A stretch of 64,000 bases of DNA from Candidatus Magasanikbacteria bacterium GW2011_GWA2_37_8 (GCA_000992085.1 LBTN01000005.1:4999-68998); one strand, 5' to 3'. Shown: positions 5,325 to 29,632, counted from the first letter of the stretch. The notes: generated by a model from the sequence alone, not told the origin. Made by a program: numbers and translations.

Positions 5325-5356
5325 CTTACTCCTTATTCCTTACTCTTTATTCCTTA
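5325..5356. repeat. (GGARTAA)n heptamer repeat, guaB 5' UTR
   Basis: CTTACTCCTTATTCCTTACTCTTTATTCCTTA ends 5 nt before the guaB ATG. Confidence 0.75.
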
Positions 5357-5360
5357 ACTT

Positions 5361-6794
5361 ATGCTTTCCATCCCTCTAGCCCTTACCTACGACGATGTTC
5401 TAATCGTACCAAAACGTTCTTCTCTCACTTCACGAAGCGAAGCTAATACAACCACTCGCTTAACCAAAAAACTCAACCTCAACATTCCTATTGTTACTTC
5501 CAACATGGACACAGTTACCGAAAGTGATATGGCGATTGCTTTGGCTCGACTGGGTGGTATTGGAATTTTGCATCGTTTTATGACAATCGAAGAAAATGCC
5601 GAAGAAGTAAAACGTGTAAAACGCGCTCAAAATTTTATTGTAAACGATCCCTATACGATTGACCCCGAAAAATCTGTAGCCGAAGCCAAAGCCTACGCTG
5701 CTTCAATTGGCATTACCGGCCTAATGGTTTCGAATGGCGATCGCAAACTTCGTGGCATTCTTTCGCGTCGTGATTTTCTTTTCTCAAATGGAGATAACAA
5801 AAAAGTTTCCGAAATCATGACACCTCGCGAAAAATTAATTGTTGGCCACGCTCATACTACTTTTAACGAAGCCAAACAAATTTTCTCCGAACATAAAATC
5901 GAAAAACTGCCATTGGTTGATTCCGAAGATAGAATTGTGGGAATTATTACAAGCGATGATATTAAACATATTATTGATTATCCACTATCTAATTGCGATG
6001 ATGACGGCCAATTAATAGTGGGCGCTTCGGTTGGTGTACAAGGTGATTTTGTAGAACGAGCCGAAGAATTGGTAAAAGCTGGTGTTGATGTAATTGTAAT
6101 TGATATTGCCCACGGCCATTCTGATGCGATGTTTAAAGCCATTGCCAAATTACGCGAAGCTATTGGCGACACACAATTAATTGCAGGTAATATTGCCACT
6201 GCCTCGGCTGCTTTAGAATTATGTGAAGCCGGAGTAGATGGATTAAAAGTTGGTGTTGGCCCTGGTACAATTTGTATCACTCGTCTAGTGACTGGTTGTG
6301 GCATGCCCCAATTAACCGCTGTAATGGAAACTTCTCGAATTGCCAAACGTTATGGTGTACCCATTATTGCTGATGGCGGTATTCAAAGATCTGGAGACAT
6401 TGTAAAAGCTATCGGTGCTGGCGCTGATACAGTAATGATGGGTGGTATGTTTGCTGGCACAGAAGAAAGCCCTGGGGTGGTTATGACCAAAGGTGATAGA
6501 AAATTTAAAATTTGTCGAGGCAGTGCCAGTTTTACCGTAGCCAATCAAAGAAGATTAATTAAACAAAGCGCTAAAGAGGTAAAAGAAATAATACCAGAAG
6601 GGGTAGAATCAATCGTGCCGTTTAAAGGGCCAGTAACCGATATTGTAAACCAACTAATTGGCGGCCTAAAATCTGGCATGAGTTACACTAATTCCCACAC
6701 CATTGCCGAACTACAAAAAAACGTCGAATTTGTTCGCATGACCAACGCCGGCTTAAAAGAAAGCGGTTCCCATGATGTTCAAGCAATTACCTAA
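5361..6794 (+). CDS. guaB: IMP dehydrogenase
   Basis: Tandem CBS domains and the catalytic loop GVGPGTICITR. 477 aa. Confidence 0.92.
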   Translation: MLSIPLALTYDDVLIVPKRSSLTSRSEANTTTRLTKKLNLNIPIVTSNMDTVTESDMAIALARLGGIGILHRFMTIEENAEEVKRVKRAQNFIVNDPYTIDPEKSVAEAKAYAASIGITGLMVSNGDRKLRGILSRRDFLFSNGDNKKVSEIMTPREKLIVGHAHTTFNEAKQIFSEHKIEKLPLVDSEDRIVGIITSDDIKHIIDYPLSNCDDDGQLIVGASVGVQGDFVERAEELVKAGVDVIVIDIAHGHSDAMFKAIAKLREAIGDTQLIAGNIATASAALELCEAGVDGLKVGVGPGTICITRLVTGCGMPQLTAVMETSRIAKRYGVPIIADGGIQRSGDIVKAIGAGADTVMMGGMFAGTEESPGVVMTKGDRKFKICRGSASFTVANQRRLIKQSAKEVKEIIPEGVESIVPFKGPVTDIVNQLIGGLKSGMSYTNSHTIAELQKNVEFVRMTNAGLKESGSHDVQAIT

Positions 6795-6812
6795 ATGTGT
6801 GGATAAATATTT

Positions 6813-6841
6813 TTGACCATATTCTTCTATTCTGCTATACT
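6813..6841 (+). promoter_or_regulatory. Promoter of the pyr operon with an adjacent DnaA box
   Basis: TTGACC, a 17-bp spacer, then TATACT. A perfect DnaA box (TGTGGATAA, reverse complement of TTATCCACA) sits at 6798-6806 immediately upstream. Confidence 0.45.
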
Positions 6842-6852
6842 GCTTTTAGCTT

Positions 6853-6939
6853 ATGAAACACAAATATCCTCTTCAAAACTACAAAAAAATTAAAAAAGAC
6901 ACATTTGTCCTCAATTTATTAATTTCCATACTACCATAA
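6853..6939 (+). CDS. Candidate pyrB leader peptide (28 aa)
   Basis: ATG-initiated ORF MKHKYPLQNYKKIKKDTFVLNLLISILP whose stop codon lies inside the hairpin of the following terminator, 22 nt before the pyrB start. This is the layout of the E. coli pyrBI attenuator. Confidence 0.35.
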   Translation: MKHKYPLQNYKKIKKDTFVLNLLISILP

Positions 6940-6954
6940 GGTAGTATTTTTTTA
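6928..6954 (+). terminator. Intrinsic terminator/attenuator in the pyrB leader
   Basis: ATACTACCataaGGTAGTAT followed by TTTTTTT. Confidence 0.5.
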
Positions 6955-6961
6955 ATTATTT

Positions 6962-7876
6962 ATGAATTTTACCAATCGCGACATCATCGGAATATCAGAA
7001 TTAACAAAAACCGAAATTCTACATATTTTAAAAATAGCCAAAAGTCTAAAACAAAAACCACAACCAAAAATTTTAGAACACAAAGTAATGGGAAGTTGTT
7101 TTTTTGAACCTTCTACTCGTACCAGACTTTCTTTTGAAACTGCCATGGAGCGATTAGGAGGTAAGGTAGTGGGGTTTGCTGATCCAGGGGTAACATCGGC
7201 CAAAAAAGGCGAATCATTATTTGACGCTATAAAAATTATTGGTCAATATGTTGATGTAATCGCCATGCGCCACCCCATCGAAGGCGCAGCCAGGCGTGCG
7301 GCCGAAGCCACCGATAAACCAATCTTAAATGGCGGTGATGGTGCCAATCAACACCCTACTCAAACATTACTAGACTTATTTACCATCCAAGAATGTCAGA
7401 AAAAACTAGAGGGTTTAAGTATTGCTTTGGTAGGTGATTTAAAATATGGCCGTACCACTCATTCTCTAGCCCAAGCATTGGCGCACTTTAACGCCAAACT
7501 ATATTTTGTTGCCCCAGACAGTTTGCAGATGCCTGGATATATTTGCGATGAATTAAAAAACAATAATATCAAATTTTCCATACATCAAAAAATCGAAGAA
7601 GTGATAAATAAAGTAGACATCTTTTATATGACTCGCATCCAAGGCGAACGTTTTGCTGATCCAATGGAATACGAACGTGTAAAAAATGTTTTTGTACTTA
7701 ATGCTAAAATGCTAGAAAAAGCCAAACCAAATTTAAAAGTAATGCATCCCCTGCCTCGAGTTAACGAAATCACAACCAGTGTTGATAAAACCCCCCACGC
7801 CTACTATTTTGAACAAGCCGAAAATGGATTGTACGTACGAGAAGCACTGCTTGGATTAGTTTTAGGTAAACTTTAA
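6962..7876 (+). CDS. pyrB: Aspartate carbamoyltransferase catalytic subunit
   Basis: STRTR, HPTQ and HPLP motifs. 304 aa. Confidence 0.9.
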
Positions 7877-7899
7877 TTTTTTACTAAACATTAAAAAAT

Positions 7900-8380: not shown

Positions 8381-9547
8381 ATGCTGATTAAAACTTGGAA
8401 CAACCAAGAAATTGATCTGCCAATAGAGATCGCAAATACAGGTGATCCGGTGGCTTTACCAGCTCTAATCGACCCCCATGTCCATTTTCGCACTCCGGGT
8501 GCCGAACAAAAAGAAAATTGGATTACCGGTACAGAAGCAGCTTTGGCTGGTGGTGTAACCACTGTGTTTGATATGCCAAATAATAATCCGGCCGTTATAG
8601 ACTATCAGTCAATCATAAATAAAAAACAAATTATTAATGAACAAATTAAATTAACTGGCAAACAATTAAATTATTATCTTTATTTAGGCGCTACTCCAAA
8701 TAATTATACCGAATTTGCCAAATGCAAAAACGAAATAATTGGTGTAAAACTTTTTATGGGCGCTAGCACTGGTGATTTACTAGTAGAAAAACTAGAAGAT
8801 CAGGAAAATATTTTTAAAACCTGTGCCGAATTAGATCTAGTTTTGGCAGTTCACGCCGAAAGCGAAGAAATTATTAAAGCCAACAGTTCACAGTTCACAG
8901 CCAATAGTTTAAAAACAAGTGGCCATTCAAAAATTCGTTCTCGCGAAGCAGCTGTAAAAGCAGTTACACAAGCCTTATCTTTGGCTAAAAAATATAACAC
9001 CAAATTATACATCTGCCATGTTAGTACCAAAGAAGAAATTGAATTAATTACACAAGCAAAATCAGAAGGCGTAACAGTATATGCCGAAGTTGCCCCCCAC
9101 CACCTATTTTTAACCGAAAACGACTACGAACGCCTAGGAACGCTGGGACAAATGAATCCGCCTCTTCGTACCATTTCCGATCAAATTGCCCTCTGGCAGG
9201 CCATTACGAATGGTATAATTGATACTATAGGTACCGACCACGCCCCCCATACTTTAGAAGAAAAATCTAAAACATACCCCAATTCCCCATCTGGTGTACC
9301 TGGCATCGAAACTCTTTTGCCCCTACTATTAAACGCATACCACGAAGGTAAAATTTCTCTACAAAAAATTGTTGAACTAACTAAATTTAATATTGAAAAA
9401 ATATTTAATCTACCACCAAATAATGATTGGGTAATAGCAGATTTAAATTTAGAAAAAAAAGTAGAAAACAAAAACCTAAAAACCAAATGCGGCTGGAGCC
9501 CATACTCTGAAACAAAATTAAAAGGCTGGCCAATAATGACGGTATAG
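8381..9547 (+). CDS. pyrC: Dihydroorotase
   Basis: DPHVHFRTPG metal-binding motif, amidohydrolase fold. Contains an in-frame copy of the pyr-spacer repeat at 8885-8909 (..NSSQFTANSLK..), and its TAG stop comes from the downstream repeat. Confidence 0.88.
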   Translation: MLIKTWNNQEIDLPIEIANTGDPVALPALIDPHVHFRTPGAEQKENWITGTEAALAGGVTTVFDMPNNNPAVIDYQSIINKKQIINEQIKLTGKQLNYYLYLGATPNNYTEFAKCKNEIIGVKLFMGASTGDLLVEKLEDQENIFKTCAELDLVLAVHAESEEIIKANSSQFTANSLKTSGHSKIRSREAAVKAVTQALSLAKKYNTKLYICHVSTKEEIELITQAKSEGVTVYAEVAPHHLFLTENDYERLGTLGQMNPPLRTISDQIALWQAITNGIIDTIGTDHAPHTLEEKSKTYPNSPSGVPGIETLLPLLLNAYHEGKISLQKIVELTKFNIEKIFNLPPNNDWVIADLNLEKKVENKNLKTKCGWSPYSETKLKGWPIMTV

Positions 9548-9720
9548 TTCACAGCCAATAGCCAATAGTTCGTAGTTACAGGCCTATTGGCTGTGAACTA
9601 TTGGCTATGAACTATCAACAAGCTGTTGGCTATGAACTAAATAATTAATTAATACGCCAAAAAAACAGTCACCTAAATTAACTATTGGCTGTGAACTATT
9701 GGCTAAGAACTATACACATA
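9541..9720. repeat. Cluster of TTGGCTRTGAACTA palindromic repeats (pyrC/carbamoyltransferase spacer)
   Basis: Arms TAGTTCACAGCCAATAG and CTATTGGCTGTGAACTA form a long palindrome, plus about five further direct copies of TTGGCTRTGAACTA. Confidence 0.8.
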
Positions 9721-10673
9721 TGCGTCATCTCATTTCACTTAAAGAACAAACAAAAGAAGATTTACTAAATATTTTAAATATCGCCCAAAAATTAAAAGCC
9801 AAAAGAAAAGCCGGCGAAAGTGTAGATATATTACACAACCAGACTTTAATCATGCTTTTTCAAAAAACTTCTACTCGCACTCGCCTTTCATTCGAAGCTG
9901 GTATGACCGAACTTGGTGGACATGCAATTTATTTAGACGCCCGAAATACCCAATTTGCTTTAACTGATTTTAAAGATGAAATCCAAGCTGTAATGCGGTA
10001 CGGATCGGTGTTAATGTTTCGCGCCTTAAAAGCAGCCGATGTTACCACTGCGGCTTTATTAAATAAAATTCCAGTAATCGACGCTTGTAGCGAAAAATAT
10101 CACCCTTGCCAAGCACTAGGCGATATTCTTACCATGATCGAACATTCTAATGGTTTGACTAATATTAAAAAAGTTACTTGGCTTGGCATTGAAAATAATG
10201 TTTCCAATACTTTACAATTAGCTTGTGCTAAATTGGGTATCGAAGTGGCTATTGCCGCGCCAGAAGCCAACCCACCAAGTGTTGACCCAGAATTAAATAA
10301 TTTGGCAAATAGCACTGGCTTAATTAAACGTACCACCAACTTGGCCGAAGCCATGGCCAACACCGATTATGTTCACACCGATACTTGGATTGATATGGAA
10401 TTTTTTAAAGATGGCAAAGTAATACCCGAATATCAAGCCGAATACGATCGACGTTTAAATACTTTTAAACCCTTTCAATTAAACGCTAATTTAGTAGATA
10501 CCTATTCACCCAAAGCCGGCATTATGCATTGTATGCCTTGCCACATTGGTTACGAAATTTCTCGCGATGCAATTGATCACAAAAATTCTGTTATATTTGA
10601 TCAAGCCGAAAATCGAATGCACATCCAAAAAGCAATTATATTATGGCTTTTGGAAAAAGAAAACTTAATTTAG
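9720..10673 (+). CDS. Second carbamoyltransferase of the ATCase/OTCase family (argF-like or unknown specificity)
   Basis: STRTRLSFE carbamoyl-phosphate site, HPCQALGD and HCMPCH motifs. Inserted between pyrC and pyrD and flanked on both sides by the repeat clusters. An alternative start is at 9699. Confidence 0.7.
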   Translation: MRHLISLKEQTKEDLLNILNIAQKLKAKRKAGESVDILHNQTLIMLFQKTSTRTRLSFEAGMTELGGHAIYLDARNTQFALTDFKDEIQAVMRYGSVLMFRALKAADVTTAALLNKIPVIDACSEKYHPCQALGDILTMIEHSNGLTNIKKVTWLGIENNVSNTLQLACAKLGIEVAIAAPEANPPSVDPELNNLANSTGLIKRTTNLAEAMANTDYVHTDTWIDMEFFKDGKVIPEYQAEYDRRLNTFKPFQLNANLVDTYSPKAGIMHCMPCHIGYEISRDAIDHKNSVIFDQAENRMHIQKAIILWLLEKENLI

Positions 10674-10765
10674 TTCATAGCCAACATTAATAGTTCATAG
10701 CCAATAGTTCACAGCCAATAGGCCTGTAACTACGAACTATTGGCTATTGGCTGTGAACTCTAAAT
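10668..10765. repeat. TTGGCTRTGAACTA palindromic repeat cluster (carbamoyltransferase/pyrD spacer)
   Basis: TAGTTCATAGCCAAC..TAGTTCACAGCCAATAGGCCTGTAACTACGAACTATTGGCTATTGGCTGTGAACT. It supplies the TAG stop of the upstream gene. Confidence 0.8.
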
Positions 10766-10770: not shown

Positions 10771-11679
10771 ATGCTAGAAACAATTTTCCTAAACAAACAA
10801 TTCTCTAATCCCATTGTACTCGCTTCAGGAATCTTAGGCGTAACCGGTGCTAGTTTAAATAATGTTATCAAAAATGGCGCTGGTGGTGTAACAGTAAAAT
10901 CTGTTTCCAAAGAACCACGTCTTGGCCACCCCAACCCTACCATGGCTGGTTATGAACATTTTTTTATTAACGCAGTTGGACTTTCCAACCCAGGAATTGA
11001 AAATGCTATTCTTGAATTAAAAAAATTCAAAGAATTGTCTAACGCACCGCTAATTGGTAGTATTTTTGCTGGCACACCCGAAGAATTTGGTTGGTTGGCA
11101 GAAAAAATTTGTGAAGCGCCAATTGATTTTTTGGAAATCGATATTTCTTGCCCAAATGTTAGCCGCGAATTTGGCGACCCCTTTGCTTATTCTGTACCAG
11201 CCGTAGAAAAAATTACCAAAGCAGTCAAAGAAAAATCAACTGTACCAATTTCTGTTAAACTTTCCCCTAATGCTTGGAATATTGATATAATTGCTAAAGC
11301 CGCCGAAAGTTCTGGTGCCGATGCTATTACCGCCGTAAACACTATTAGCGGTATGACAATCGATGTTCGGGCTCGTCGACCAGTTCTACACAATAAACAA
11401 GGTGGCGTATCTGGCCCAGCCCTATTTCCAATTGCCCTTAAATGCGTGTATGATATTTACAGGGCAGTAAAAATTCCAATTATTGGTACTGGCGGAGTAA
11501 CCACTGGTGAAAATGCCTTAGCCATGATTATGGCTGGCGCTACTTTGGTGGGTGTAGGCTCTGCGGTATATTTTCGAGGGGTAGAAGTTTTTAAACACAT
11601 TACCGAAGAAATGACAAAAATTATGGAGGAAGAAGGAATAAAAAATTTAAACGAAATTCGTGGCTGTGTACATTTGTAG
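10771..11679 (+). CDS. pyrD: Dihydroorotate dehydrogenase catalytic subunit (class 1B)
   Basis: TIM-barrel DHODH motifs (GVTVKS.., SNPG, GGV.TGE). Confidence 0.88.
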   Translation: MLETIFLNKQFSNPIVLASGILGVTGASLNNVIKNGAGGVTVKSVSKEPRLGHPNPTMAGYEHFFINAVGLSNPGIENAILELKKFKELSNAPLIGSIFAGTPEEFGWLAEKICEAPIDFLEIDISCPNVSREFGDPFAYSVPAVEKITKAVKEKSTVPISVKLSPNAWNIDIIAKAAESSGADAITAVNTISGMTIDVRARRPVLHNKQGGVSGPALFPIALKCVYDIYRAVKIPIIGTGGVTTGENALAMIMAGATLVGVGSAVYFRGVEVFKHITEEMTKIMEEEGIKNLNEIRGCVHL

Positions 11680-11745
11680 TTCAGAGCCAATAGCCAATAG
11701 TTCGTAGTTACAGCCTATTGGCTGTGAACTATCAACAAACTATTA
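11676..11745. repeat. TTGGCTRTGAACTA palindromic repeat (pyrD/pyrK spacer)
   Basis: TAGTTCAGAGCCAATAGCCAATAGTTCGTAGTTACAGCCTATTGGCTGTGAACTA. The pyrD TAG stop lies inside it. Confidence 0.8.
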
Positions 11746-11759
11746 ACTTATAATATTAT

Positions 11760-12563
11760 ATGGATTCTACATTTATTAAAATCTCTGATATAGAAATCGA
11801 AAACTCGAACGTAAAAACTTTTTATTTTGATTATGAATTAAAAAGTAAACCAGGACAATTTATCATGCTTTGGATTCCAGGCACAGATCAAAAACCATTT
11901 TCTGTTTCTTTTGATAACGGCCAAAAATTTGGTTTAACCATTTTTAAACGAGGGCCAGCAACCAATAAATTATTTAAAATGAAAATTGGTGATCGGGTCG
12001 GAATAAATGGACCATACGGCACCAACTTTACTATCAATCCAAATTTACACTACATTATGGTAGCTGGTGGGTATGGTGCTGCCCCTTTAAAATTTTTAAC
12101 TCAAACTATTAATGGTGCTGCAATCGATTTTATTGCTGGTGGCCGCACCAAAGATAATTTATTATTTGAAGAAGAACTAACAAAAATACCAAACCTTAAT
12201 TTACATATTACTACCGATGACGGCAGCAAAGGTTATAAAGGATTTGTAACTGATGTATTAGTAGAATTGTTAGCTAAAATTGACCCTGCCCAAAAAGATA
12301 AAACTTTGGTGGTTACTTGTGGGCCAGAATTAATGCAAAAAAAGGTATTGGATATTTGTAATGAACACAATATTAATTGCGAAGTAAGCATCGAACGCTA
12401 TATGAAATGTGGTATGGGTATTTGCGGCCAATGCGTAATTGATGATTTGGGTATTTGTATGTGTAAAGACGGACCAGTAGTTAATCAAAAATTAGCTAAC
12501 CAAATTTTTGAATTTGGTAAATATCATCGTGATAAAAGTGGTGTAATAGTTCACAGCCAATAG
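11760..12563 (+). CDS. pyrK: Dihydroorotate dehydrogenase electron-transfer subunit
   Basis: FAD/NAD-binding domain plus a C-terminal 2Fe-2S motif CGMGICGQCV. The final residues VHSQ and the stop codon are encoded by the repeat. Confidence 0.85.
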   Translation: MDSTFIKISDIEIENSNVKTFYFDYELKSKPGQFIMLWIPGTDQKPFSVSFDNGQKFGLTIFKRGPATNKLFKMKIGDRVGINGPYGTNFTINPNLHYIMVAGGYGAAPLKFLTQTINGAAIDFIAGGRTKDNLLFEEELTKIPNLNLHITTDDGSKGYKGFVTDVLVELLAKIDPAQKDKTLVVTCGPELMQKKVLDICNEHNINCEVSIERYMKCGMGICGQCVIDDLGICMCKDGPVVNQKLANQIFEFGKYHRDKSGVIVHSQ

Positions 12564-12650
12564 CCAATAGTTCATAGTTACGGGCCTATTGGCTACGAAC
12601 TATCAACAACCTATTGGCTACGAACTATTGGCTATGAACTAATTAAACAT
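12549..12650. repeat. TTGGCTRTGAACTA palindromic repeat cluster (pyrK/pyrE spacer)
   Basis: TAGTTCACAGCCAATAGCCAATAGTTCATAGTTACGGGCCTATTGGCTACGAACTA plus two further direct copies. Confidence 0.8.
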
Positions 12651-16521: not shown

Positions 16522-16532
16522 AGTGTGAAAGA

Positions 16533-16613
16533 AATAAGGAGTAAAGAGTAAGGAATAAATAACAGTTAATCGCCCGCATTACTTATTCCTTTTTCCTTAT
16601 TCTTTATTCCTTC
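16533..16613. repeat. Inverted pair of (GGARTAA)n repeats
   Basis: AATAAGGAGTAAAGAGTAAGGAATAA ... TTATTCCTTTTTCCTTATTCTTTATTCCTT in the Nif3/epmB spacer. Confidence 0.75.
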
Positions 16614-16711: not shown

Positions 16712-17641
16712 TCATTTTACTTTTATTTTCTTCCCCCTAAAATCCTTATAACTATCTGCCTTAAATTCCCAAAAATCCAACGGCACAGGTATTTTACCAG
16801 AACCATCTGGGGCGTCAATAGTATATAATGGTGTTGCTAAACCACTTAGTCTCTTGCGTAATTCTGTAAAAATTTTTATTTCTTTTTTAAAATCAACCAT
16901 AAAATGTTCGACCCCAATTACTGGATCACACCGAAAAAAATAATACGGCTTTACTCCCACTTCTACTAATCGAGAAAATAAATTATACAAAATTTCTACA
17001 GAATCATTAACTCCTTTTAGTGAAACTGTTTGCGATAACATCATTGTACAAACCGGACGCAAACGATTTAATGCTTTAATGGTTGCCTCGGTAATTTCGG
17101 CTGGATGTTCAAAATGTAGCATTAAATATAGTGGCTGTTTTTTAACTATTTTTAATGCTTCAATTAACTTTTTATTTACTGCACTGGGATTAGAAACCGG
17201 CAAACGCGAGCCAACCCTAATTACTTTTATTTGAGGTAATTTTACAAATTTTTGTAAAGCTTGTTTTAGTATTTCTGGCACGGTCATAGGGTCGCCACCA
17301 GAAAAAACCAATTCTTTAATTTCGGGATGTTGTTTAATATATCGCACCATATTATCCAAATCTTTGGTACTAACTATTCCTTTAGCAATATCCGATACTT
17401 TACGTCGGCGAGTACAAAACCGACAATAGGCAGCACAATTCATAGTTAAAAGCACCAGAGCTCTATTACCGTACTTGTGCACTAAACCCCGAGTAACTGT
17501 AAAATGTTCCTCGAGCAACGGATCGGCCGAAGTAATCGTTTCGTCTTGCTCTTCTTTGTTCGAAGGTACAAACTGACGATAAATTTCCGGACAAACTTTG
17601 GTAAGTTTTTTTAAATGTGGTGATAATCTAGTTGCCAACAT
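16712..17641 (-). CDS. Lysine 2,3-aminomutase family radical SAM enzyme (EpmB/KamA-like)
   Basis: CAAYCRFCTRR CxxxCxxC radical-SAM motif of the KamA family. 309 aa, which is EpmB-sized. efp and epmA are present at 62.3-63.9 kb. Confidence 0.8.
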   Translation of the reverse strand: MLATRLSPHLKKLTKVCPEIYRQFVPSNKEEQDETITSADPLLEEHFTVTRGLVHKYGNRALVLLTMNCAAYCRFCTRRRKVSDIAKGIVSTKDLDNMVRYIKQHPEIKELVFSGGDPMTVPEILKQALQKFVKLPQIKVIRVGSRLPVSNPSAVNKKLIEALKIVKKQPLYLMLHFEHPAEITEATIKALNRLRPVCTMMLSQTVSLKGVNDSVEILYNLFSRLVEVGVKPYYFFRCDPVIGVEHFMVDFKKEIKIFTELRKRLSGLATPLYTIDAPDGSGKIPVPLDFWEFKADSYKDFRGKKIKVK

Positions 17642-17646
17642 AGAAT

Positions 17647-17733
17647 TAAGGAATAATGAAAAAGGATTAAGGAATAAGTAACCTAAACAATCAATCGCTA
17701 TTTACTCTTTATTCCTTACTCCTTGTTCCTTCA
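17647..17733. repeat. Inverted pair of (GGARTAA)n repeats
   Basis: TTAAGGAATAATGAAAAAGGATTAAGGAATAAG ... TTTACTCTTTATTCCTTACTCCTTGTTCCTTC. It supplies the epmB 5' UTR and the last codons and stop of the ATP-grasp gene. Confidence 0.75.
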
Positions 17734-18757: not shown

Positions 18758-19789
18758 TTAATTTAAAATCAACCCACCATTCAAACTATTTTCTTTATTA
18801 CCATTATCGCGGTGGACATTAATTACCAAACGTCTTAAAATTTCTTCAAATTCGATGCCATATAATTTTAAAACATTACTAACAGCACACTCTACCCCAA
18901 AAGCAGGATTGGCGTTACAGTCGATAAAATAATACCGGCCAGATTCATCTTGACGCACATCAAACTTGGCATAATCATCCATTTTTAAAACATCAAAAGC
19001 CGAACGAACATAACCTTCCAAAATATCATTGCCGTCAGCACGGGCATAATCATAACTATTAATATCATGCCAAACTGCGTCAAAAGAAGCAATTTTATAT
19101 TTTTCGGCTGAATCACGAAATACTTTTTCTCCAATATATACTTTGCGAATTGCTCCTTCGAGTAAATAAGCGGTAAGTTCTTTACCAACAATAAATTCTT
19201 CTACCAAAACCGGCTGCTTGTAAGTACTGATCAAATTTTTTAATTGATTACGTAATCCAGCTTCGTTTTCGCTAACCGAATTTTGATCAATCGCTACGCT
19301 ACCATGAACTTCATTTAATTTGGAAATTAAAGGAAATTTTAAATGCATGTCGATTGGGTCGTTGGCAGTCTTAAATAATTGATAGCGGGGCAATGGTACA
19401 CCGGCTTGTTCTAATAATTTTTTGGTTAAAAATTTATTAGAATTAATAGATAACCCAAGCATGCCAGTGCCTAAATATGGAATATTTAATAATTCTAAAG
19501 TGCCAGGAATAGCCGCCGACAAATATTCTTTACCTTCCACCGAATCTACTAAATTTAATACAAAATCTAATGGTTTTTTCTTACGAAGAATCTCGGTTAA
19601 ATCACTGTTGCCTGGCACCAAATCAACAACATACCCTAATTTTTCAAAATACGGCACCAAAGTTTTAGCACGCTCGAACACTTCCGCCTCGGAAATATAT
19701 TGTTCTTCGGTTGGGAAGTATTCTCGTTTAGCATCACTATATAAAATAGCGATGTGTTTGTGATTGGTTATTTCCATTTTATTATCCAT
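18758..19789 (-). CDS. ATP-grasp ligase, D-alanine--D-alanine ligase family (tandem paralog)
   Basis: EEFIVGKELTAYLL..., FDVRQDESGRYYFIDCNANPA. It is a paralog of the adjacent gene. Confidence 0.7.
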   Translation of the reverse strand: MDNKMEITNHKHIAILYSDAKREYFPTEEQYISEAEVFERAKTLVPYFEKLGYVVDLVPGNSDLTEILRKKKPLDFVLNLVDSVEGKEYLSAAIPGTLELLNIPYLGTGMLGLSINSNKFLTKKLLEQAGVPLPRYQLFKTANDPIDMHLKFPLISKLNEVHGSVAIDQNSVSENEAGLRNQLKNLISTYKQPVLVEEFIVGKELTAYLLEGAIRKVYIGEKVFRDSAEKYKIASFDAVWHDINSYDYARADGNDILEGYVRSAFDVLKMDDYAKFDVRQDESGRYYFIDCNANPAFGVECAVSNVLKLYGIEFEEILRRLVINVHRDNGNKENSLNGGLILN

Positions 19790-19999
19790 ATAAATAAATA
19801 TTCAAAAAAATTAACTGACCAGAAGATCCAGCGTTTGGTTGCTCTTTAACGGGTTAAAGAGTAATCAAACATGGGATTAGAACAAACAATTTCGCGTTTA
19901 TTTGCCCTCGAGCGGGTTGTGCCCCGCAGGGCACCCTTTTGCCCTCGCGGGCAAAAAAAGCGAGGGGGCAAATAAACGTGGAATTGTGATTATGATTTA

Positions 20000-20045
20000 A
20001 TAAAATAAACAAAATCCCAAGTCAACCACAGTCAACTTGGGATTA
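20000..20045 (-). terminator. ileS intrinsic terminator
   Basis: On the minus strand AATCCCAAGTTGAC..GTCAACTTGGGATT is followed by TTTTGTTTATTTTATT. Confidence 0.55.
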
Positions 20046-20172
20046 AATTTTAGTCAGAGATTAAATTAGGGAAAGGATCCTCCGTAAAGGACACATGATT
20101 CATAATATTTTTTCTGGTGTAATTATATCACCACTCACCCTAGTGTCAAGAGATTTTTGCCATGTGGATAAG

Positions 20173-23118
20173 TTAAACTAAAGCAATCATTACTTTACCC
20201 TCTCCTACTTCTATTTCTACCGCACCGTCCCTAGCTTCCAACACCAAATCTTTGGCTTTAACCGATGCTATTAATTCTGTTTTATATACCTCAAAAACTT
20301 CAACCAATTCTTTGTCTTCAGTATGCCAAAAAATAGTTACCAAATCCGCTGGGGTAAGATTTTTCTCTTTACGCATCTGATTTATCCCACGAACAAGTTC
20401 GCGCAACAAACCTTCACGTTTAAGTTCGGGGGTAATAACCGTATTTAATCTAATCTTAATTTCAGATTCTTCTTTTGTTACACCATCTTCTTGGTCTCGC
20501 ACTACTTCTGTATATTTAACCTCTTTTACATTCAATTCATCAGCTGCCATTTTCTCCAATTGTTCTGAAAGTTGTTTTCCTTGATAACGTACATATTGTA
20601 GTGGTTGTCTTACCTTCACTCCACTTTCTGCCCGAGCTGCCAAACCCATCTCCACAATCTTCCTAGCCAAAATCATTTCTTCCAAAACTTTTTCATTCAC
20701 CAATTTTTTATCCACCTCTGGCCAAGTCTCCAAATGTACTGATTCGATTATTCCTTGTTCCTTGCTCCTTATTCCTTTATATATCTTCTCTGCAATAAAC
20801 GGCGTAAACGGTGCCATTAACTTGGATAAAGTTAAAAGTACATAACCCAAAGTATCCGAAGCAGCCAAAGCATCGTTTTTATCATCTCCTTTAAATCTAT
20901 CACGCGAACGACGCACATACCACTGCGATAATTCGGTAACAAAATCCAAAATTGGTCGAGAAGCATCAGTCAAACGATAACCCTCCATGCCTTTGGTAAC
21001 ATCACCAATCAATACTTGCAATTTTGCCAAAATCCACTTGTCCAATATATTCTCACTTACTCCTTGTTCCTTATTCCTTATTCCTTCACTCGCAAACATT
21101 TCGTAAAATGTAACTACATTCCACAAAGTATTAATTAATTTACTATAAACTTCACGCACCCCAATCTCAGAAAAATTTAACCCTTCGGCTGCCATTACTG
21201 GCGAAGTAACCAAATAGTAGCGCATGGCATCAGCACCATATTTTTCCAAAACAATATCTGGTTCTGGATAGTTCTTTAAACGCTTGCTCATTTTTTTACC
21301 ATCTTCTGCCAAAACAATGCCATTAACAATTACATTACGAAAAGCTGGCACTGAATGTTTGGTCGGGATAATTGGTTTTTTACCACTAGTTAAAGCAGTG
21401 GCTAAAATATGCAAGGTATAAAACCAACCGCGAGTTTGATCTTGGCCTTCCGCGATAAACTCCGCTGGAAAACCAGCCTCAAATTTGGTCTTATTCTCAA
21501 ACGGATAATGCATTTGCCCATATGGCATAGAACCAGATTCAAACCAACAATCCAAAACCTCAGGAATACGTTTATATACCTTACCATCTTTTTTAATCTC
21601 CAAATCATCAATTTTGTGTTTATGAAGATCAGTGATTTTTGCACCAGTTAATTGTTCCAATTCTTCTACATTCCCTATACACAATGCCTCACCATCCTCA
21701 TTTTCCCAAACTGGAAGCGGGGTTCCCCAAAATCGATTACGCGATACCGCCCAATCACGCGCGCCTTCAAGCCACAAACCAAAACGCCCTTCTTTTATAT
21801 GCTCTGGCACCCAATTAATATCTTTATTATTTTTTAATAGTTGTTCTTTTAATTCTGTAACTTTAATAAACCAACTATTGGTAGCATAATTAAGAAGCGG
21901 GGTATCACAACGCCAACAATGTGGATAACTATGTTCAAATTTTTCTTTGCTAAATAATTTTCCATTATGCGCTAACCATTTAATAATTTCTACATCAGTC
22001 GCTGTCGGCTCTTCGCGTGGTTTAACTTCATGGCCAGCAAAATCTTCTACTTCCTCTACAAATCTCCCATCCATTTTTACGTGTTGCACCAGCGGTATCC
22101 CCTCACGTTTGCCCACATTATAATCGTCTTCACCAAAAGCTGGAGCAATATGTACCACACCAGTACCGTCTTCGGTGGTAACAAAATCAGCGCCTACTAC
22201 TCGAAAGGCATTAGAGGTATTAACAAAATATGGAAATAACGGTTCATATTCAAGACCGATTAAATCCGAACCCTTGAATGTTTTATCTAACACATAACTC
22301 GTATCACGTAACACAGTTTCTAATCTATCCTTGGCCAATACCAAATTTTCTTCACCAACTTTTACTAAAACATAATCAATATCACTACCAACTGCCAACA
22401 AAACATTTCCTGGCAAAGTCCAAGGCGTAGTTGTCCAAGCCAAAATATACACCGGCCCGCTCACGTCTCGTAATTTTTCCTTATTACTTACTCCTTGTTC
22501 CTTTATACAAAACTTCATAGTCACTGAAATGTCTTTTACATCTTTATATCCCTGCGTTACTTCAAAATTTGATAACGGCGTTACACAGCGCGGACAAATA
22601 TGCATGGCCTTGTGCCCTTTGTAAATCAAATTCAAATCCCAAAGCTGTTTAAACACCCACCAAACACTTTCCATATATGGCAAATCCATGGTTTTATAAT
22701 CATTTTCCATATCAACCCAGCGCCCCATACGTTTGATAGTCTTTTTCCATTCTTCCGCGTATTTCAAAACCGTTGCCCGACAAGCTTCATTAAATTTGGC
22801 TACACCATATTCTTCAATATCTTTTTTACTATTCAAATTTAATTCTTTCTCAATAATATTCTCCACTGGTAACCCATGGCAATCCCAACCCCACCGGCGT
22901 TCCACGCGTTTTCCTTGCATGGTCCAATAACGTGGTACCACATCTTTCATAAGCGAAGCCACAATATGCCCATAATGAGGAAGTCCGGTAGCAAAAGGCG
23001 GACCATCATAAAAAACATATGGCTTATCCTCTGGACGTTCAGAAACAGATTTTTCAAAAATTTTGTTATCCTCCCAAAATTTTAAGACTTCTTTTTCGTT
23101 GTCGTTAGCGTTATACAT
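20173..23118 (-). CDS. ileS: Isoleucine--tRNA ligase
   Basis: 981 aa. HIGH (PHYGH) and KMSKR (KMSKRLKN) motifs. Carries three in-frame copies of the (GGARTAA)n repeat. Confidence 0.93.
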   Translation of the reverse strand: MYNANDNEKEVLKFWEDNKIFEKSVSERPEDKPYVFYDGPPFATGLPHYGHIVASLMKDVVPRYWTMQGKRVERRWGWDCHGLPVENIIEKELNLNSKKDIEEYGVAKFNEACRATVLKYAEEWKKTIKRMGRWVDMENDYKTMDLPYMESVWWVFKQLWDLNLIYKGHKAMHICPRCVTPLSNFEVTQGYKDVKDISVTMKFCIKEQGVSNKEKLRDVSGPVYILAWTTTPWTLPGNVLLAVGSDIDYVLVKVGEENLVLAKDRLETVLRDTSYVLDKTFKGSDLIGLEYEPLFPYFVNTSNAFRVVGADFVTTEDGTGVVHIAPAFGEDDYNVGKREGIPLVQHVKMDGRFVEEVEDFAGHEVKPREEPTATDVEIIKWLAHNGKLFSKEKFEHSYPHCWRCDTPLLNYATNSWFIKVTELKEQLLKNNKDINWVPEHIKEGRFGLWLEGARDWAVSRNRFWGTPLPVWENEDGEALCIGNVEELEQLTGAKITDLHKHKIDDLEIKKDGKVYKRIPEVLDCWFESGSMPYGQMHYPFENKTKFEAGFPAEFIAEGQDQTRGWFYTLHILATALTSGKKPIIPTKHSVPAFRNVIVNGIVLAEDGKKMSKRLKNYPEPDIVLEKYGADAMRYYLVTSPVMAAEGLNFSEIGVREVYSKLINTLWNVVTFYEMFASEGIRNKEQGVSENILDKWILAKLQVLIGDVTKGMEGYRLTDASRPILDFVTELSQWYVRRSRDRFKGDDKNDALAASDTLGYVLLTLSKLMAPFTPFIAEKIYKGIRSKEQGIIESVHLETWPEVDKKLVNEKVLEEMILARKIVEMGLAARAESGVKVRQPLQYVRYQGKQLSEQLEKMAADELNVKEVKYTEVVRDQEDGVTKEESEIKIRLNTVITPELKREGLLRELVRGINQMRKEKNLTPADLVTIFWHTEDKELVEVFEVYKTELIASVKAKDLVLEARDGAVEIEVGEGKVMIALV
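20748..20780. repeat. (GGARTAA)n repeat in-frame inside ileS
   Basis: Encodes ..IKEQGVSNKEK.. on the minus strand. Confidence 0.7.
21055..21089. repeat. (GGARTAA)n repeat in-frame inside ileS
   Basis: Encodes ..SEGIRNKEQGVS.. on the minus strand. Confidence 0.7.
22477..22507. repeat. (GGARTAA)n repeat in-frame inside ileS
   Basis: Encodes ..GIRSKEQGII.. on the minus strand. Confidence 0.7.
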
Positions 23119-23261
23119 ATTAAAATTTAAAATTAATTAATTTACTTCTTCACACACCAACCGTTCTTGTCCCTTTCTTTTATAAGAAAGTGACGCAAAG
23201 AAATCGCGAGTTGTGAATAAATTTGAAAAAATTTTGTAACGCGTCGTTACTTTTAGCTCTA

Positions 23262-23468
23262 ACTCGCTACGCTCAAACAGAGAGCCAAACCCTCCCTATG
23301 GTCGGGTCGTTCCTCCTTGTTTACAAATTTATTTCAAATTTACTCAATACTCGCCTCGCCAACGTTGGCCAACTGTCCCGAGCCTTGGTGAGTGAGGTTT
23401 AATTTAGAGGTGAATTAACGTGATCCGCCCGTAGGGCGGATTTGACTCGCTGTTTGAGCGAAGCGAGT
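23262..23468. repeat. MITE-like element with 19-bp terminal inverted repeats
   Basis: ACTCGCTACGCTCAAACAG (23262-23280) against CTGTTTGAGCGAAGCGAGT (23450-23468). The internal CCGCCCgtaGGGCGG hairpin lies in a GC-enriched noncoding stretch. Confidence 0.4.
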
Positions 23469-23573
23469 TCGAGTCAAAAACATTAATGAACCCTAAATTA
23501 TCCGAACGAACCACCAGCTCGAAGTTTTTGCTCCACTTTTTTTAAAAAGTGGAAGGCAATTGGCTTTATTTAA

Positions 23574-23606
23574 AAAAATAAAAAACACGAATAATATCGT
23601 GCCAAG
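23574..23606 (-). terminator. Intrinsic terminator of an unannotated minus-strand transcript upstream of ileS
   Basis: On the minus strand CACGAtattatTCGTG is followed by TTTTTTATTTTTTT. Confidence 0.55.
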
Positions 23607-23859
23607 AGTCCGCGACTTTGTCGGGACGGTACCATCTTGTGCTTTAGCTTAATTACGGCTATAACGGGCCAACCCGCAGGGTTCTACTTACCACTTCTGG
23701 CTTTCTTCCCCAAGCTCCTCGCTGATAACGAGTTTTAATGCTTTTCTTATGTGTTTATCTTACTCAAAAAAACATTAACTGTCAACTGTTGCGTGTCAAC
23801 TGTTGCGAATTCTTATTAAAAACTATATAATACATTTACCAAATCAAAATTCGATCAAT

Positions 23860-23890
23860 TTATTCCTTACTCCTTATTCTTTATTCTTTT
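23860..23890. repeat. (GGARTAA)n repeat, 5' UTR of the rpiB-like gene
   Basis: TTTATTCCTTACTCCTTATTCTTTATTCTTTT. Confidence 0.7.
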
Positions 23891-23894
23891 ATAT

Positions 23895-24215
23895 ATGCTT
23901 TATATCGGCTCCGATTATGCTGGTTTTGATCTTAAAACAAAACTTGTAACTTATCTTAAAAAACAATTAAAATTAAAAGTAGAAGATTTGGGTGCTTTTG
24001 AAAAAACTGAAGACGATTTTGTAGATTACGCTGTACCAGTAGCCAAAGCAGTCGCTAAAAATGAAGCCAACCGCGGAATTCTAATTTGTGATAGTGGTCA
24101 TGGTATGAATATTGCCGCTAATAAAATAAAAGGCATACGAGCTTCTGAAACTGATTTTATCCCACTCGAACGCCGTATCCGCCGTATGAAAAAAATCGCA
24201 AAGTTGGAGAAATAA
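23895..24215 (+). CDS. Ribose-5-phosphate isomerase B-like protein, C-terminally truncated (possible pseudogene)
   Basis: N-terminal 80 aa match RpiB/LacAB (GSDYAGFDLK..., GILICDSGHGMNIAANKIKGIRA). The C-terminal third, including the catalytic His region, is replaced by unrelated sequence. Confidence 0.55.
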   Translation: MLYIGSDYAGFDLKTKLVTYLKKQLKLKVEDLGAFEKTEDDFVDYAVPVAKAVAKNEANRGILICDSGHGMNIAANKIKGIRASETDFIPLERRIRRMKKIAKLEK

Positions 24216-27551: not shown

Positions 27552-27968
27552 CTATTTAAAAGGATTATAACCTTGCTCGAGCAAATTTATAATAGGTAAA
27601 AAAAGTGGCCGTGGCATTTCTTCCCAATCAAACCAATCAAAAAATTCTGTTTTATCTGGTTCCATTATTTTTGGATCACCAGAGGCATAATCAGAAACTA
27701 CAAATAAAGTAACATAATGTTTGCCTTCACCAGTATGAACATCGTTGGTATAAGGGCCAACCCAAATATTAGTTATTTCTATCCCCAATTCTTCTATAGT
27801 TTCACGACGAGCAGTCTCTTCTAAACTTTCCCCAAATTCCATATGCCCCCCCGGAAAACACCAAGTACCAAAACCATGAGCACCTTTTCTTTTTTGCATC
27901 AAAACTTTGCCATCTTTTTTGACAATTACCCCTACTCCTACTTTTGGTCTTTTGGTTATATCTTCCAT
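27552..27968 (-). CDS. NUDIX hydrolase
   Basis: Nudix box GGHMEFGESLEETARRETIEELGI. Confidence 0.85.
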   Translation of the reverse strand: MEDITKRPKVGVGVIVKKDGKVLMQKRKGAHGFGTWCFPGGHMEFGESLEETARRETIEELGIEITNIWVGPYTNDVHTGEGKHYVTLFVVSDYASGDPKIMEPDKTEFFDWFDWEEMPRPLFLPIINLLEQGYNPFK

Positions 27969-27970
27969 AT

Positions 27971-28486
27971 CTAAGACAACTTTTTTAAAATCTCCTCACC
28001 AAATTCTTTGGCTGCGGCAGGGCCGCTGGCGGTAATAAGATTATTATCAACTACTACCGGTTTGTGCACATACCCTGCGTTAACAGCAGACAAAATTTCT
28101 TCTAATTTATTATCTCCGTCCCAGCCAGTAATTTTGCGCCCTTTTAAAACTTGGGCATTAGCTAAAATTCGTGGTGAAATACAAATTGCTCCCCAAAATT
28201 TTTCACTAGCCGCAACCTCACGTATAATTTTATAAGATTTTTCATTATCCAAATATTCTAATGCCCCCGGACCACCAATAAAAAATATACCATCGTAATC
28301 ACCTGCTACCACTTTATCCAAAAGTATATCAACTTCTGTTTCGCTATTATCAATGGCGACTGCTTTGCCCAAACTATTGCTAGCAGTAATAACAGTAACA
28401 CCGCCCGCTTCTAAAATCGCTTTGGGAATAGCGTATTCTATTGGTTGATAATCTTTAGAAGCAACCACTAATAAAACTTTTTTCAT
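27971..28486 (-). CDS. DJ-1/PfpI family protein
   Basis: Class I glutamine amidotransferase-like fold (DGIFFIGGPG, nucleophile elbow AICISP). Confidence 0.8.
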   Translation of the reverse strand: MKKVLLVVASKDYQPIEYAIPKAILEAGGVTVITASNSLGKAVAIDNSETEVDILLDKVVAGDYDGIFFIGGPGALEYLDNEKSYKIIREVAASEKFWGAICISPRILANAQVLKGRKITGWDGDNKLEEILSAVNAGYVHKPVVVDNNLITASGPAAAKEFGEEILKKLS

Positions 28487-28487
28487 A

Positions 28488-29216
28488 CTATACTTTTTCG
28501 TTATAAAAATCTACATCTACCGCTGTATGAATACCACGCATCCGATTTAAATCTTGTTTGCGACCATGGAAAAAATCTACTGATTGGCAAACTGCTTCAT
28601 AATTTAATTCGGGGCCAAGAAGGCATAAACCGAATTCAAAACTACGTACCCTAGTTCTAATTTCGGCAGCTAAATTAGGATGATCTTGTTCTTTGTCTGC
28701 CAACCCTCGCATATCATCTAGCCGACCTCTTATTTCGGCTAACATTTCGGCAAAAGAAGCGACTCGTTCTAAATATTTATCTTTTTCTACACCCATTACT
28801 TTACGATTAACAAAATCGCGCAAATCTTTTTGCATTTCTACCAAAGCACTACACAATTCTCCACGTTCTTCGGGAATAAAATAATCAGCTGGCCTGCCAG
28901 AGTGCAAATCACGCAAAGTGCCGCCATAAGTTTTAAAATCTTGATATTTTTCTTGTGTACTTTTAGACAAACGAGGTAACAAAGAATGTTCGCCGATTTC
29001 ATTTTCTGCTAAAGCCAAAAATTCTTTATAAGCCTGATTCCACGGCCAAACTAAATAGCCAAAGTTAATCATGGTGTCTTCGATTTCTTCTACTGTCATA
29101 GTTTGGTCTTGCTCCAGATGTTCTAAAGCATGCTTCATTTTTTCTACTTCTTCTGTTGGAAATAACGGCGGCAAATGATCATAAAGATAACGAAAAAGTT
29201 TGATAGTTGATTGCAT
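28488..29216 (-). CDS. Hypothetical protein
   Basis: 242-aa ORF. Start taken at MQSTIK, downstream of a heptamer repeat. Confidence 0.4.
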   Translation of the reverse strand: MQSTIKLFRYLYDHLPPLFPTEEVEKMKHALEHLEQDQTMTVEEIEDTMINFGYLVWPWNQAYKEFLALAENEIGEHSLLPRLSKSTQEKYQDFKTYGGTLRDLHSGRPADYFIPEERGELCSALVEMQKDLRDFVNRKVMGVEKDKYLERVASFAEMLAEIRGRLDDMRGLADKEQDHPNLAAEIRTRVRSFEFGLCLLGPELNYEAVCQSVDFFHGRKQDLNRMRGIHTAVDVDFYNEKV

Positions 29217-29217
29217 A

Positions 29218-29248
29218 TAAAGGAGTAAGGAATAAAGAATAAGGAACA
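29218..29248. repeat. (GGARTAA)n repeat
   Basis: AAGGAGTAAGGAATAAAGAATAAGGAACAA between the four-helix-bundle gene and the downstream hypothetical gene. Confidence 0.7.
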
Positions 29249-29249
29249 A

Positions 29250-29600
29250 CTATTTTTTGTTGACTATAGACCAAATAATTTTGGCTAATTCATTAATCAA
29301 CAAAACCGTTTCTTTAAATTTTAATTCATTTAAATAATTTTGTTTTTTAGAAAAATTTATCAGATACCTGGTTTCTTCTAATGAACCAAAAGCAATAATT
29401 AAAAAACGTCTAAATTCATTTTTACTCTGCCTAGCAAACCCTTCAACAATATTTAATACCACCGACAAAGCAGATCTCCTCAGTTGTGACGTTAAACCAT
29501 ACAATTCATATTTTGGAAAACACTGTATAATTTCATAAATACTATTTGCCAACTTATCAGCCTTAACATACAATGGATTATTTTCACTTATCATAATCAC
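29250..29600 (-). CDS. Four-helix-bundle protein (23S rRNA intervening-sequence protein family)
   Basis: LTSQLRRSALSVVLNIVEG...FRRFLIIAFGSLEETRYL is a strong match to the TIGR02436/PF05635 signature. Confidence 0.7.
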   Translation of the reverse strand: MIMISENNPLYVKADKLANSIYEIIQCFPKYELYGLTSQLRRSALSVVLNIVEGFARQSKNEFRRFLIIAFGSLEETRYLINFSKKQNYLNELKFKETVLLINELAKIIWSIVNKK

Positions 29601-29632
29601 TTACTCCTTATTCTTTATTCCTTACTCCTTAT
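29597..29632. repeat. (GGARTAA)n repeat
   Basis: CACTTACTCCTTATTCTTTATTCCTTACTCCTTATA between the trmH-like gene and the four-helix-bundle gene. Confidence 0.7.

Follow-up and report, generated by a model that had tools for sequence, protein, structure and literature searches.

Short tracts built from the heptamer GGARTAA are scattered over part of a genome of Candidatus Magasanikbacteria bacterium GW2011_GWA2_37_8, where they lie before start codons, over gene ends and within the essential gene ileS. What are these tracts, and to what kind of element do they belong? The question was addressed in a 64,000-nucleotide stretch of this genome (GCA_000992085.1, LBTN01000005.1:4999-68998; 37.5% GC, genes densely packed), referred to as the window. 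The explanation that we favor, with a probability of about 0.72, is that the tracts are the ∼28-nt terminal inverted repeats of a selfish cassette of the intervening sequence (IVS) type with an S23p/IVP gene as cargo, together with derivatives of that cassette. It is built on four observations: the anatomy of the one complete cassette, its insertion relative to related genomes, the presence of the cassette at other loci, and its co-occurrence with dispersed copies. Loci of other genomes are cited by L numbers.

A complete IVS-type cassette lies between protein-coding genes

A first-pass annotation of the window had counted at least eleven GGARTAA copies in 29 kb. That count holds: 12 matches to (GGARTAA)4 at three or fewer mismatches correspond to 11 distinct tracts, all between 5.3 and 29.6 kb, and their frequency exceeds that expected from composition, with no tract in 100 dinucleotide-preserving shuffles of the window. 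Ten of the 11 consist of four units (28 nt), the other of five; a degenerate unit (tRTRAA) precedes each tract on the purine strand, and Tandem Repeats Finder assigns all of them a period of 7 or 14. Taken singly, a tract is purine-only, 28 nt long and without self-complementarity. Two of the tracts bound a gene and make up the following cassette.

29220-29635, minus strand: complete IVS-type cassette (purine arm, IVP open reading frame (ORF), pyrimidine arm) at the junction of the SpoU-methylase gene and a 242-aa gene
29601-29635, minus strand: upstream (purine) arm of the cassette, five heptamers, the outermost degenerate
29250-29594, minus strand: IVP/S23p ORF, 114 aa, four-helix-bundle protein (PF05635, TIGR02436)
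29222-29249, plus strand: downstream arm; on the minus strand, which is transcribed, it is pyrimidine-rich, and 5 nt separate its end from the ATG of the host gene that follows

The arms proper (29220-29245 and 29605-29630) are 26 nt long, 100% complementary and 359 nt apart, and their lag-7 identity is 0.75-0.81. No other inverted pair in the 64-kb window combines arms of 22 nt or more with complementarity of 85% or more at a spacing of 250-600 nt; the other pairs of that arm length and spacing reach at most 79% complementarity. The upstream arm supplies the SpoU-methylase gene with its last codons and stop (..YDIRSKE*), its 4-5 GGARTAA units stop 6 nt before the IVP ATG, and its AAGGAG lies 9 nt before that start. 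The enclosed protein matches the 23S rRNA IVP family PF05635 (E=2.3e-32) and TIGR02436 (107.9 bits, cut-off 24), and among solved structures PDB 2gsc (Xanthomonas XCC0516, 5 chains; E=3.7e-14) is the nearest. It is related to Avd of the diversity-generating retroelements (DGRs), yet scores only 31 bits against the DGR Avd equivalog NF033474, for which the cut-off is 80; the nearest reverse transcriptase, which has its own bAvd, is beyond the window end at an estimated distance of ∼37 kb.

The same gene junction in a related genome lacks the cassette. In L247 (IleS 73% identical), the SpoU gene ends ..YYISNFK* and is followed after 5 nt by the ATG of the same downstream gene (MQSTI..), whose start in the window is at 29216; the junction is thus 414 bp with the cassette in the window and 5 nt without an IVP gene in L247. 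Because the orthologous junction is only 5 nt and empty, the cassette is an insertion. A scan of the window at Rfam gathering thresholds found four tRNAs and no rRNA.

IVP genes are bordered by heptamer arms in other genomes

Six IVP homologues were picked by similarity and contig size, with repeats disregarded. All six ORFs lie between inverted arms of 18-36 nt, each of about four heptamers, 340-420 nt apart, and four heptamer types are represented.

L250, L252 and L253: GGARTAA arms
L248: AAYTRRC arms
L257 (CPR2): NNAACAG arms
L260 (Spechtbacteria): GAACANN arms

Over 18 arms (those of the window, the six homologue loci, L011 and L029), self-identity at lag 7 is 0.58-0.97 (pooled 0.77), versus 0.19-0.37 at other lags. 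A periodicity detector was positive at 9-11 of 12 IVP flanks; tracts occur at 0.08-0.15 per kb in the background sample, which comprised the remainder of these loci plus 80 kb from relatives without IVP (binomial P ∼1e-18 to 1e-21).

Five GGARTAA cassettes from five genomes and three loci can be aligned over arm, ORF and arm: the purine arm precedes the ORF start, and the pyrimidine arm extends to ∼7 nt before the next host ATG. The IVP homologues are 45-68% identical, and the ORF is intact and conserved. The location of the cassette varies: in L250 and L252 its neighbours are a gene for an 81-aa protein and one for a methyltransferase, and in L248 (with its AAYTRRC arms), L253 and L150 it sits between the terminator of a T-box-like leader and the ileS start codon. 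Cassette and dispersed copies occur together in three genomes: that of the window, UBA11710, with the cassette in L250 and a pair plus a solo arm in L055, and that of L150, with the same cassette and eight tracts in 12.7 kb.

Two further samples are biased or small and are used as supporting evidence only. At least 240 loci were collected from the genome and metagenome contig matches listed for degenerate purine heptamers; they are mostly unrelated microsatellites, do not include the source genome and do not amount to a census. Among them, tblastn placed an IVP ORF next to the tract in a Paludibacteraceae metagenome-assembled genome (MAG; L010), a Flavobacteriales MAG (L011) and two metagenome contigs (L114 and L150). 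The purine tract matched in L029, a Syntrophaceae MAG, is 5.6 kb from an IVP ORF that has its own inverted GGGGTCA-type arms. In a plasmid collection, the IVP protein matches 24 records, nearly all cyanobacterial, in which the genes lie inside operons, for example between cas10 and cmr3 or between cas6 and cas4; five of six inspected cyanobacterial plasmid genes have tandem 7-8 nt repeats on one or both flanks. The gene between cas6 and cas4, on a Pseudanabaena plasmid (L267), has direct (AGCTAAA)n/(AGCCAAA)n repeats on both sides. At L138, a long (TCAGTAY)n array at ∼3690-3860 follows the IVP gene and is nearly the reverse complement of the published TAACTGA repeat.

Dispersed copies form ORF-less hairpins and solo arms

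Besides the single complete IVS-type cassette, which lies outside rRNA, the window has five solo arms and two hairpins that lack an ORF. These hairpins and their arms are as follows.

17640-17731, minus strand: ORF-less hairpin in the spacer between an ATP-grasp gene and a radical-SAM (epmB-like) gene, 24-nt loop
17702-17729, minus strand, and 17650-17677, plus strand: its arms, each a (GGARTAA)4 match
16529-16612, minus strand: ORF-less hairpin before the start codon of a Nif3-like gene and after a terminator-like hairpin, 24-nt loop
16583-16610, minus strand, and 16531-16558, plus strand: its arms, each a (GGARTAA)4 match

The hairpin potential that had been ascribed to these two spacers was upheld on folding: 16529-16612 gives -31.4 kcal/mol (z -4.6; arms 34 nt, 79% complementary) and 17640-17731 gives -22.9 kcal/mol (z -2.0). 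By eye, the two loops agree at 13 of 24 nt if one of them is reversed. All pairs share with the cassettes a purine-then-pyrimidine topology; an inverted repeat reads alike on both strands, so that a pair gives topology and no orientation relative to transcription. The termini of both pairs belong to the same family as the arms of the ORF-bearing cassette, as in miniature inverted-repeat transposable elements (MITEs); no consistent target-site duplication was found at three sites with empty or tight junctions, and the parent has no transposase. At the junction between the ATP-grasp and radical-SAM genes, the window has an 85-nt hairpin of purine arm, 24-nt loop and pyrimidine arm, compared with 3-7 nt in L245, L246 and L247. 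The ATP-grasp gene ends inside the tract of this hairpin (..GTRSKE*), which supplies its stop codon. This gene end had been recognized in the first-pass annotation; the SpoU-methylase gene is a second case that had escaped it.

The solo arms are the following.

5326-5353, minus strand: guaB leader, pyrimidine-rich on the guaB mRNA strand, ending 7 nt before the guaB ATG
20748-20775, minus strand: ileS site 3, in frame, GIRSKEQGI
21057-21084, minus strand: ileS site 2, in frame, GIRNKEQGV
22474-22501, minus strand: ileS site 1, in frame, KEQGVSNKEK
23860-23887, minus strand: rpiB leader, pyrimidine-rich on the rpiB mRNA strand, ending 7 nt before the rpiB ATG

Treated as eight independent loci, the copies all fall within 24 of 74 kb, for which a rough hand estimate gives a chance of ∼3e-3; no tract was found at 30-64 kb of the window or in the 10 kb past its end. 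A tblastn search for IVP remnants in the gaps at 23100-23900, 19780-20180 and 5190-5365 returned nothing below E=0.008.

Copies within ileS replace codons of variable loops

The three copies inside ileS encode the short in-frame peptides that had been read there. In an alignment with 31 orthologues (66-74% identical), all three segments fall in columns of variable length, and the same three places are sites of insertion or deletion relative to the human cytoplasmic isoleucyl-tRNA synthetase (IleRS). A 28-nt tract, inserted cleanly, could not have kept the ileS frame, and the net gain over the nearest orthologues is only 4-5, 3 and 4 residues at the three sites; the tract therefore replaced loop codons and was not a clean addition. 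At site 1, the conserved K-(L/V)-K is now C-I-K. Each in-frame TAA expected from the canonical unit reads CAA or AAA in the ileS copies; at site 1, two would-be stops are altered, one from TAA to CAA and one from TAA to AAA. Because ileS is essential, the incoming sequence must have been stop-free on arrival. ileS is present in three assemblies of this population, and the IleS proteins that they encode are identical. The IleS of the window is also 100% identical to the protein recorded for Candidatus Magasanikbacteria bacterium GW2011_GWC2_34_16, a CPR/Patescibacteria genome from groundwater, and its gene is found again on a metagenome scaffold of 161 kb.

The proposal that the segments are lineage-specific occupants of loops, to be abandoned if orthologues carried them too, fits sites 1 and 3, and site 2 with one exception. 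The exception is L150 (IleS 72% identical), which has a canonical tract at site 2 (GIRSKEKGV; 32 of 36 nt match the window copy by hand count) and none at sites 1 or 3. Since L150 also has the cassette and eight tracts, and ∼30 other orthologues are without the site-2 segment, the comparison points to a shared or parallel insertion and not to conserved IleS sequence. Weak possible remnants are seen in P0005 at site 2 and in P0016/L245 at site 3 (GITNSKEQQ). The L150 IleS (1233 aa) also has an insertion of ∼190 residues in its catalytic region, and other long homologues (P0028, P0067 and P0071) list PF00300 (histidine phosphatase).

Start codons and alternative explanations

Each of the five genes that the first-pass annotation had named (guaB, the Nif3-like gene, the radical-SAM (epmB-like) gene, rpiB and the 28488 gene) has a tract whose end lies 5-9 nt ahead of its start codon, and the genome is indeed poor in ribosome-binding sites: only ∼7 of 55 ORFs have a Shine-Dalgarno (SD) match (a 4-mer of AGGAGG at -22 to -4). 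UAAGGAG is complementary to the canonical 16S 3' end. The tracts might accordingly be translation-initiation signals, SD arrays (UAAGGAG) in one orientation and mimics of the 16S anti-SD tail in the other, and AAGGAG or AAGGAA does occur 3-22 nt upstream of the IVP start in five of five aligned cassettes. Heptamer repeats just before start codons in Beggiatoaceae have been proposed as translational regulators (PMC4679880). We nevertheless regard a role in initiation, as had been suggested for the window, as very unlikely. At all five host start codons, each with a tract no more than 10 nt away, the mRNA strand is the pyrimidine-rich (CU-rich) one, which is unable to pair with the anti-SD, and the IVP ORF of the cassette is alone in having AAGGAG upstream. 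Three copies are internal to an ORF, two form gene ends, and IVP cassettes of other lineages have heptamers without SD character (AAYTRRC, NNAACAG, GGGGTCA). Over 159 heterogeneous tracts of many phyla, among the matches listed, proximity to start codons is weak or absent (21% and 14% on the pyrimidine strand versus a background of 12%, none on the purine strand), and it was dropped as a general rule.

Could the tracts instead be ordinary heptanucleotide simple-sequence repeats, of the kinds called LSSR (long simple-sequence repeats) or STRR (short tandemly repeated repetitive sequences), that arose in place by slippage, with their adjacency to IVP genes incidental? In many bacteria, no class of long simple sequence is more abundant than the heptanucleotides, and slippage has been proposed for them (Mrazek 2007, as summarised in PMC4679880). 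Arms vary from 4 to 9 units across cassettes, the matches listed include (RGARYAA)n tracts of 3-71 units from many phyla, and by hand count 13 of 21 nt at the SpoU end of a relative align to the first three units here. We hold this origin to be improbable. Tract length in the window is nearly fixed at four units, ordered mixtures of unit variants recur among copies and among genomes, the tracts occur as inverted pairs, the flanks of IVP genes are enriched for them (P ∼1e-18), and slippage could not have raised an 85-nt palindrome from junctions of 3-7 nt such as the relatives have. Heptamer slippage may still alter arm length once a cassette is in place. A different proposal, compatible with the cassette explanation, treats the heptamer arrays as putative sites for a ring-shaped IVP oligomer with one subunit per heptamer. 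The 7-nt period and ∼4-5 units are kept around IVP genes while the heptamer changes by lineage, as in the co-evolution of a protein and its site; the upstream arm is A/G-rich in 14 of 14 cassettes read; PDB 2gsc has five chains; and Avd, an IVP homologue, works with nucleic acid in DGRs. Xanthomonas S23p is reported to be a homopentamer (PMC4990558). Most cassette loci are without extra tracts nearby, however, and the Coxiella ORF appears decaying and untranslated (PMC4990558). Sites of this kind are unlikely on balance, and it is similarly doubtful that, if IVP does bind them, the dispersed tracts make up a small post-transcriptional or DNA-level regulon or serve as handles for mobilisation. 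A wider version, in which IVP rings bind ∼4-5 heptamers while gene and arms travel as a cassette through rRNA, leaders and operons and seed STRR/LSSR tracts, is offered tentatively, as a speculative extension. If true, it would give a function to the S23p/IVP family and to heptamer repeats alike, in mobilisation or in RNA processing and regulation, and the STRR/LSSR tracts of cyanobacteria, Bacteroidota, Beggiatoaceae and Candidate Phyla Radiation (CPR) bacteria would share an origin in IVP cassettes.

A selfish IVS-type cassette remains the explanation that we prefer, and several findings count against it. The cassette is between protein genes, away from the classical IVS location in helix 25 or 45 of 23S rRNA, and its cargo is a four-helix-bundle protein, no known recombinase or transposase. 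No consistent target-site duplication was seen at the cassette or at the two hairpin pairs. Solo arms could come from local slippage or gene conversion instead of being remnants of insertions, and the ileS tracts, in replacing loop codons, added a net 9-15 nt and not 28 nt. In some cyanobacterial cases, the flanking heptamer arrays are direct or unrelated, not inverted. No dispersed copies were found within 3-8 kb of the cassettes in L248, L250, L252, L253, L257 and L260, and four 8-kb loci with a cassette were free of them; dispersal of tracts is not an obligatory property of the cassette. Finally, a second hairpin family in the pyr operon, described below, has no cognate IVP gene in the 74 kb examined.

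Three other candidates were ruled out: an uptake-signal sequence, because the copies are confined to 24 of 74 kb and uptake signals are evenly spread; a CRISPR-like array, because the paired arms are inverted, not direct; and template or variable repeats of a DGR, because the tracts are 28 nt long, have no adjacent reverse transcriptase, and the IVP protein falls short of the Avd equivalog. A DGR core does occur at L125 6917-8469, an estimated ∼6.5-8 kb past the window end, where a bAvd-like gene and an RVT_1 reverse transcriptase lie beside type IV pilus genes; no GGARTAA tracts surround it, and nothing ties its reverse transcriptase to the tracts.

A model for the cassette and its derivatives

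The preferred explanation suggests the following model. The mobile unit would have termini of four heptamers plus a degenerate fifth and a small S23p/IVP four-helix-bundle gene as cargo, and the ORF-less hairpins would be derivatives comparable to miniature (MITE-like) copies. Spread was probably mainly local, given that all copies lie within 24 kb. Surviving copies would be those that sit where harm is small: in tiny spacers before start codons, over old stop codons, where the tract's own TAA can serve as the new stop, and in variable surface loops of IleS, where only copies reading CAA or AAA for the in-frame TAA would be tolerated. By analogy with 23S rRNA IVSs, for which the step has been demonstrated, the arms may pair in the transcript to form a 26-28-bp duplex that RNase III cuts. 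At the complete cassette, such a cut would release the IVP segment from the operon mRNA; at the ORF-less hairpins, it would fall between cistrons, a few nucleotides upstream of the next start codon.

Other features in and near the window

Each spacer of the pyrimidine-biosynthesis (pyr) operon holds strong hairpin structure, directly ahead of the start codon, made from a second heptamer family (AGCCAAT, AGTTCAY; about four units per arm).

9544-9713, 10670-10759, 11677-11751 and 12545-12642: pyr-operon hairpins, folds -23 to -41 kcal/mol, z -4.7 to -9

The four hairpins are clustered like the GGARTAA copies, and the AGCCAAT family was seen only in this genome among all loci examined.

Upstream of ileS, a leader at ∼23590-23790 (minus strand) is conserved in three relatives; it comprises AGTAGA.., GCCCGT.. 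and AAGATGGTACCG, followed by a terminator at 23603-23584. It resembles a T-box and was not called by Rfam even at E<=1; an E-value scan of 23050-23950 gave nothing credible. The 465 nt between this terminator and the ileS ATG (23119-23583, minus strand) fold at -154.7 kcal/mol (z -7.8) and contain inverted repeats of 58 and 34 nt; relatives carry an IVP cassette at this place, and the segment itself has no IVP similarity and no Rfam hit. Between ileS and a ddl-like operon lies an unannotated 380-nt spacer (19790-20172, minus strand) that contains a TG-extended promoter matching TTGACA-16-TATAAT perfectly (20149-20122) and, at 19886-19987, a hairpin whose arms are 48 nt long; it could be a leader or a regulatory RNA.

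Elsewhere in the window, a class II ribonucleotide reductase gene (44851-49317, minus strand) probably contains an intein, since a LAGLIDADG domain occupies residues 420-506. The 5' part of ruvB (50192-50316, plus strand) contains 2.1 copies, 98% identical, of a 60-bp unit, by which 20 residues are duplicated in frame. The window differs from an ENA scaffold of the same population at 24146, where a 120-nt in-frame piece of rpiB is absent (106 versus 146 aa), at 57823-57887, where 65 nt correspond to 140 nt in the scaffold, and by a further length difference in 33-53 kb. The 14-mer TATATGATACCCGC at the 5' end of tRNA-Gly(tcc) (minus strand) has three copies in the 170 nt upstream of the tRNA (61816-61986).

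Comparison with known systems

Since about 1990, IVS elements have been regarded only as a curiosity that breaks 23S rRNA into fragments. To our knowledge, the function of the S23p ORF and the mobility of IVSs are not known, the S23p/IVP family has no known function outside DGRs, and heptamer repeats (STRR, LSSR, TAACTGA) have been catalogued for decades without explanation. These two unexplained features, IVS/S23p ORFs and heptamer repeats, are now linked in a testable way: the same cassette of ORF and heptamer arms occurs in ordinary operons and mRNA leaders of CPR bacteria, and heptamer-periodic repeats border IVP genes in several phyla, whatever the heptamer sequence. For annotation of CPR genomes, this means that several gene ends, start contexts and protein loops are repeat-derived. 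In a limited literature, which is not proof of novelty, no paper was found that links PF05635 genes outside rRNA to heptamer arms.

Like MITEs and repetitive extragenic palindromic (REP) elements, the family comprises short hairpin copies in operon spacers beside a longer, ORF-bearing version with the same termini; unlike them, it has no recognisable transposase or REP-associated tyrosine transposase (RAYT) and no evident target-site duplication, and its arms are 7-nt periodic. Rickettsia palindromic elements (RPEs) are 100-150 bp palindromes inserted whole, with no known ORF-bearing parent. The likeness to RPEs drawn in the first-pass annotation holds for behavior, a selfish short repeat that survives in frame in an essential gene and adds a hydrophilic loop, as the empty junctions and the ileS loops indicate; it fails for structure, the coding copies being single 28-nt, non-palindromic purine arms that partly replace loop codons.

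Closer in repeat type are the TAACTGA heptamer direct repeats of Beggiatoaceae, cyanobacteria and Bacteroidetes (MacGregor 2015), which lie just before starts, over stops and sometimes in ORFs, and for which an RNA-binding regulator was postulated and no associated gene reported (PMC4679880). That paper does not mention an S23p or four-helix-bundle gene. The 11 tracts are dispersed head-to-tail heptamers of this STRR/LSSR/TAACTGA type and share with it 2-6 tandem units, positions near starts and over upstream stops, a few copies at tolerant places in ORFs, and SD-poor genomes. Those repeats are direct, whereas the tracts here are inverted arms of an ORF-bearing cassette with another unit sequence; arms in other genomes have 5-9 units, compared with four (10 of 11) or five (1 of 11) here.

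The closest match is the 23S rRNA IVS, and the earlier view that the family is undescribed gives way to it, the tracts being the termini of an S23p/IVP cassette with the anatomy of the Coxiella IVS. In Coxiella burnetii, the IVS is described as a selfish element, 428-444 nt in length, that contains an S23p ORF and whose ends form a 28-bp stem within which RNase III cuts, and three tandem heptamers (GACAGAT) plus a degenerate fourth, in numbers that vary by strain, directly precede the ORF start (PMC4990558). S23p ORFs are also found in IVSs of Leptospira, Brucella and Haemophilus (PMC4990558). The window cassette agrees in size (∼0.4 kb), in its PF05635 ORF, in its ∼28-bp stem arms and in the tandem heptamers of an AG-rich arm before the ORF. 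It differs in its location in protein operons or mRNA leaders, in its GGARTAA heptamer, in the company of ORF-less hairpins, solo arms and coding copies, and in an ORF that is intact here and decaying in Coxiella. Taken together, the element is best filed as an IVS-like S23p cassette, new in lying outside rRNA, in occurring in CPR bacteria and in having miniature and coding derivatives.

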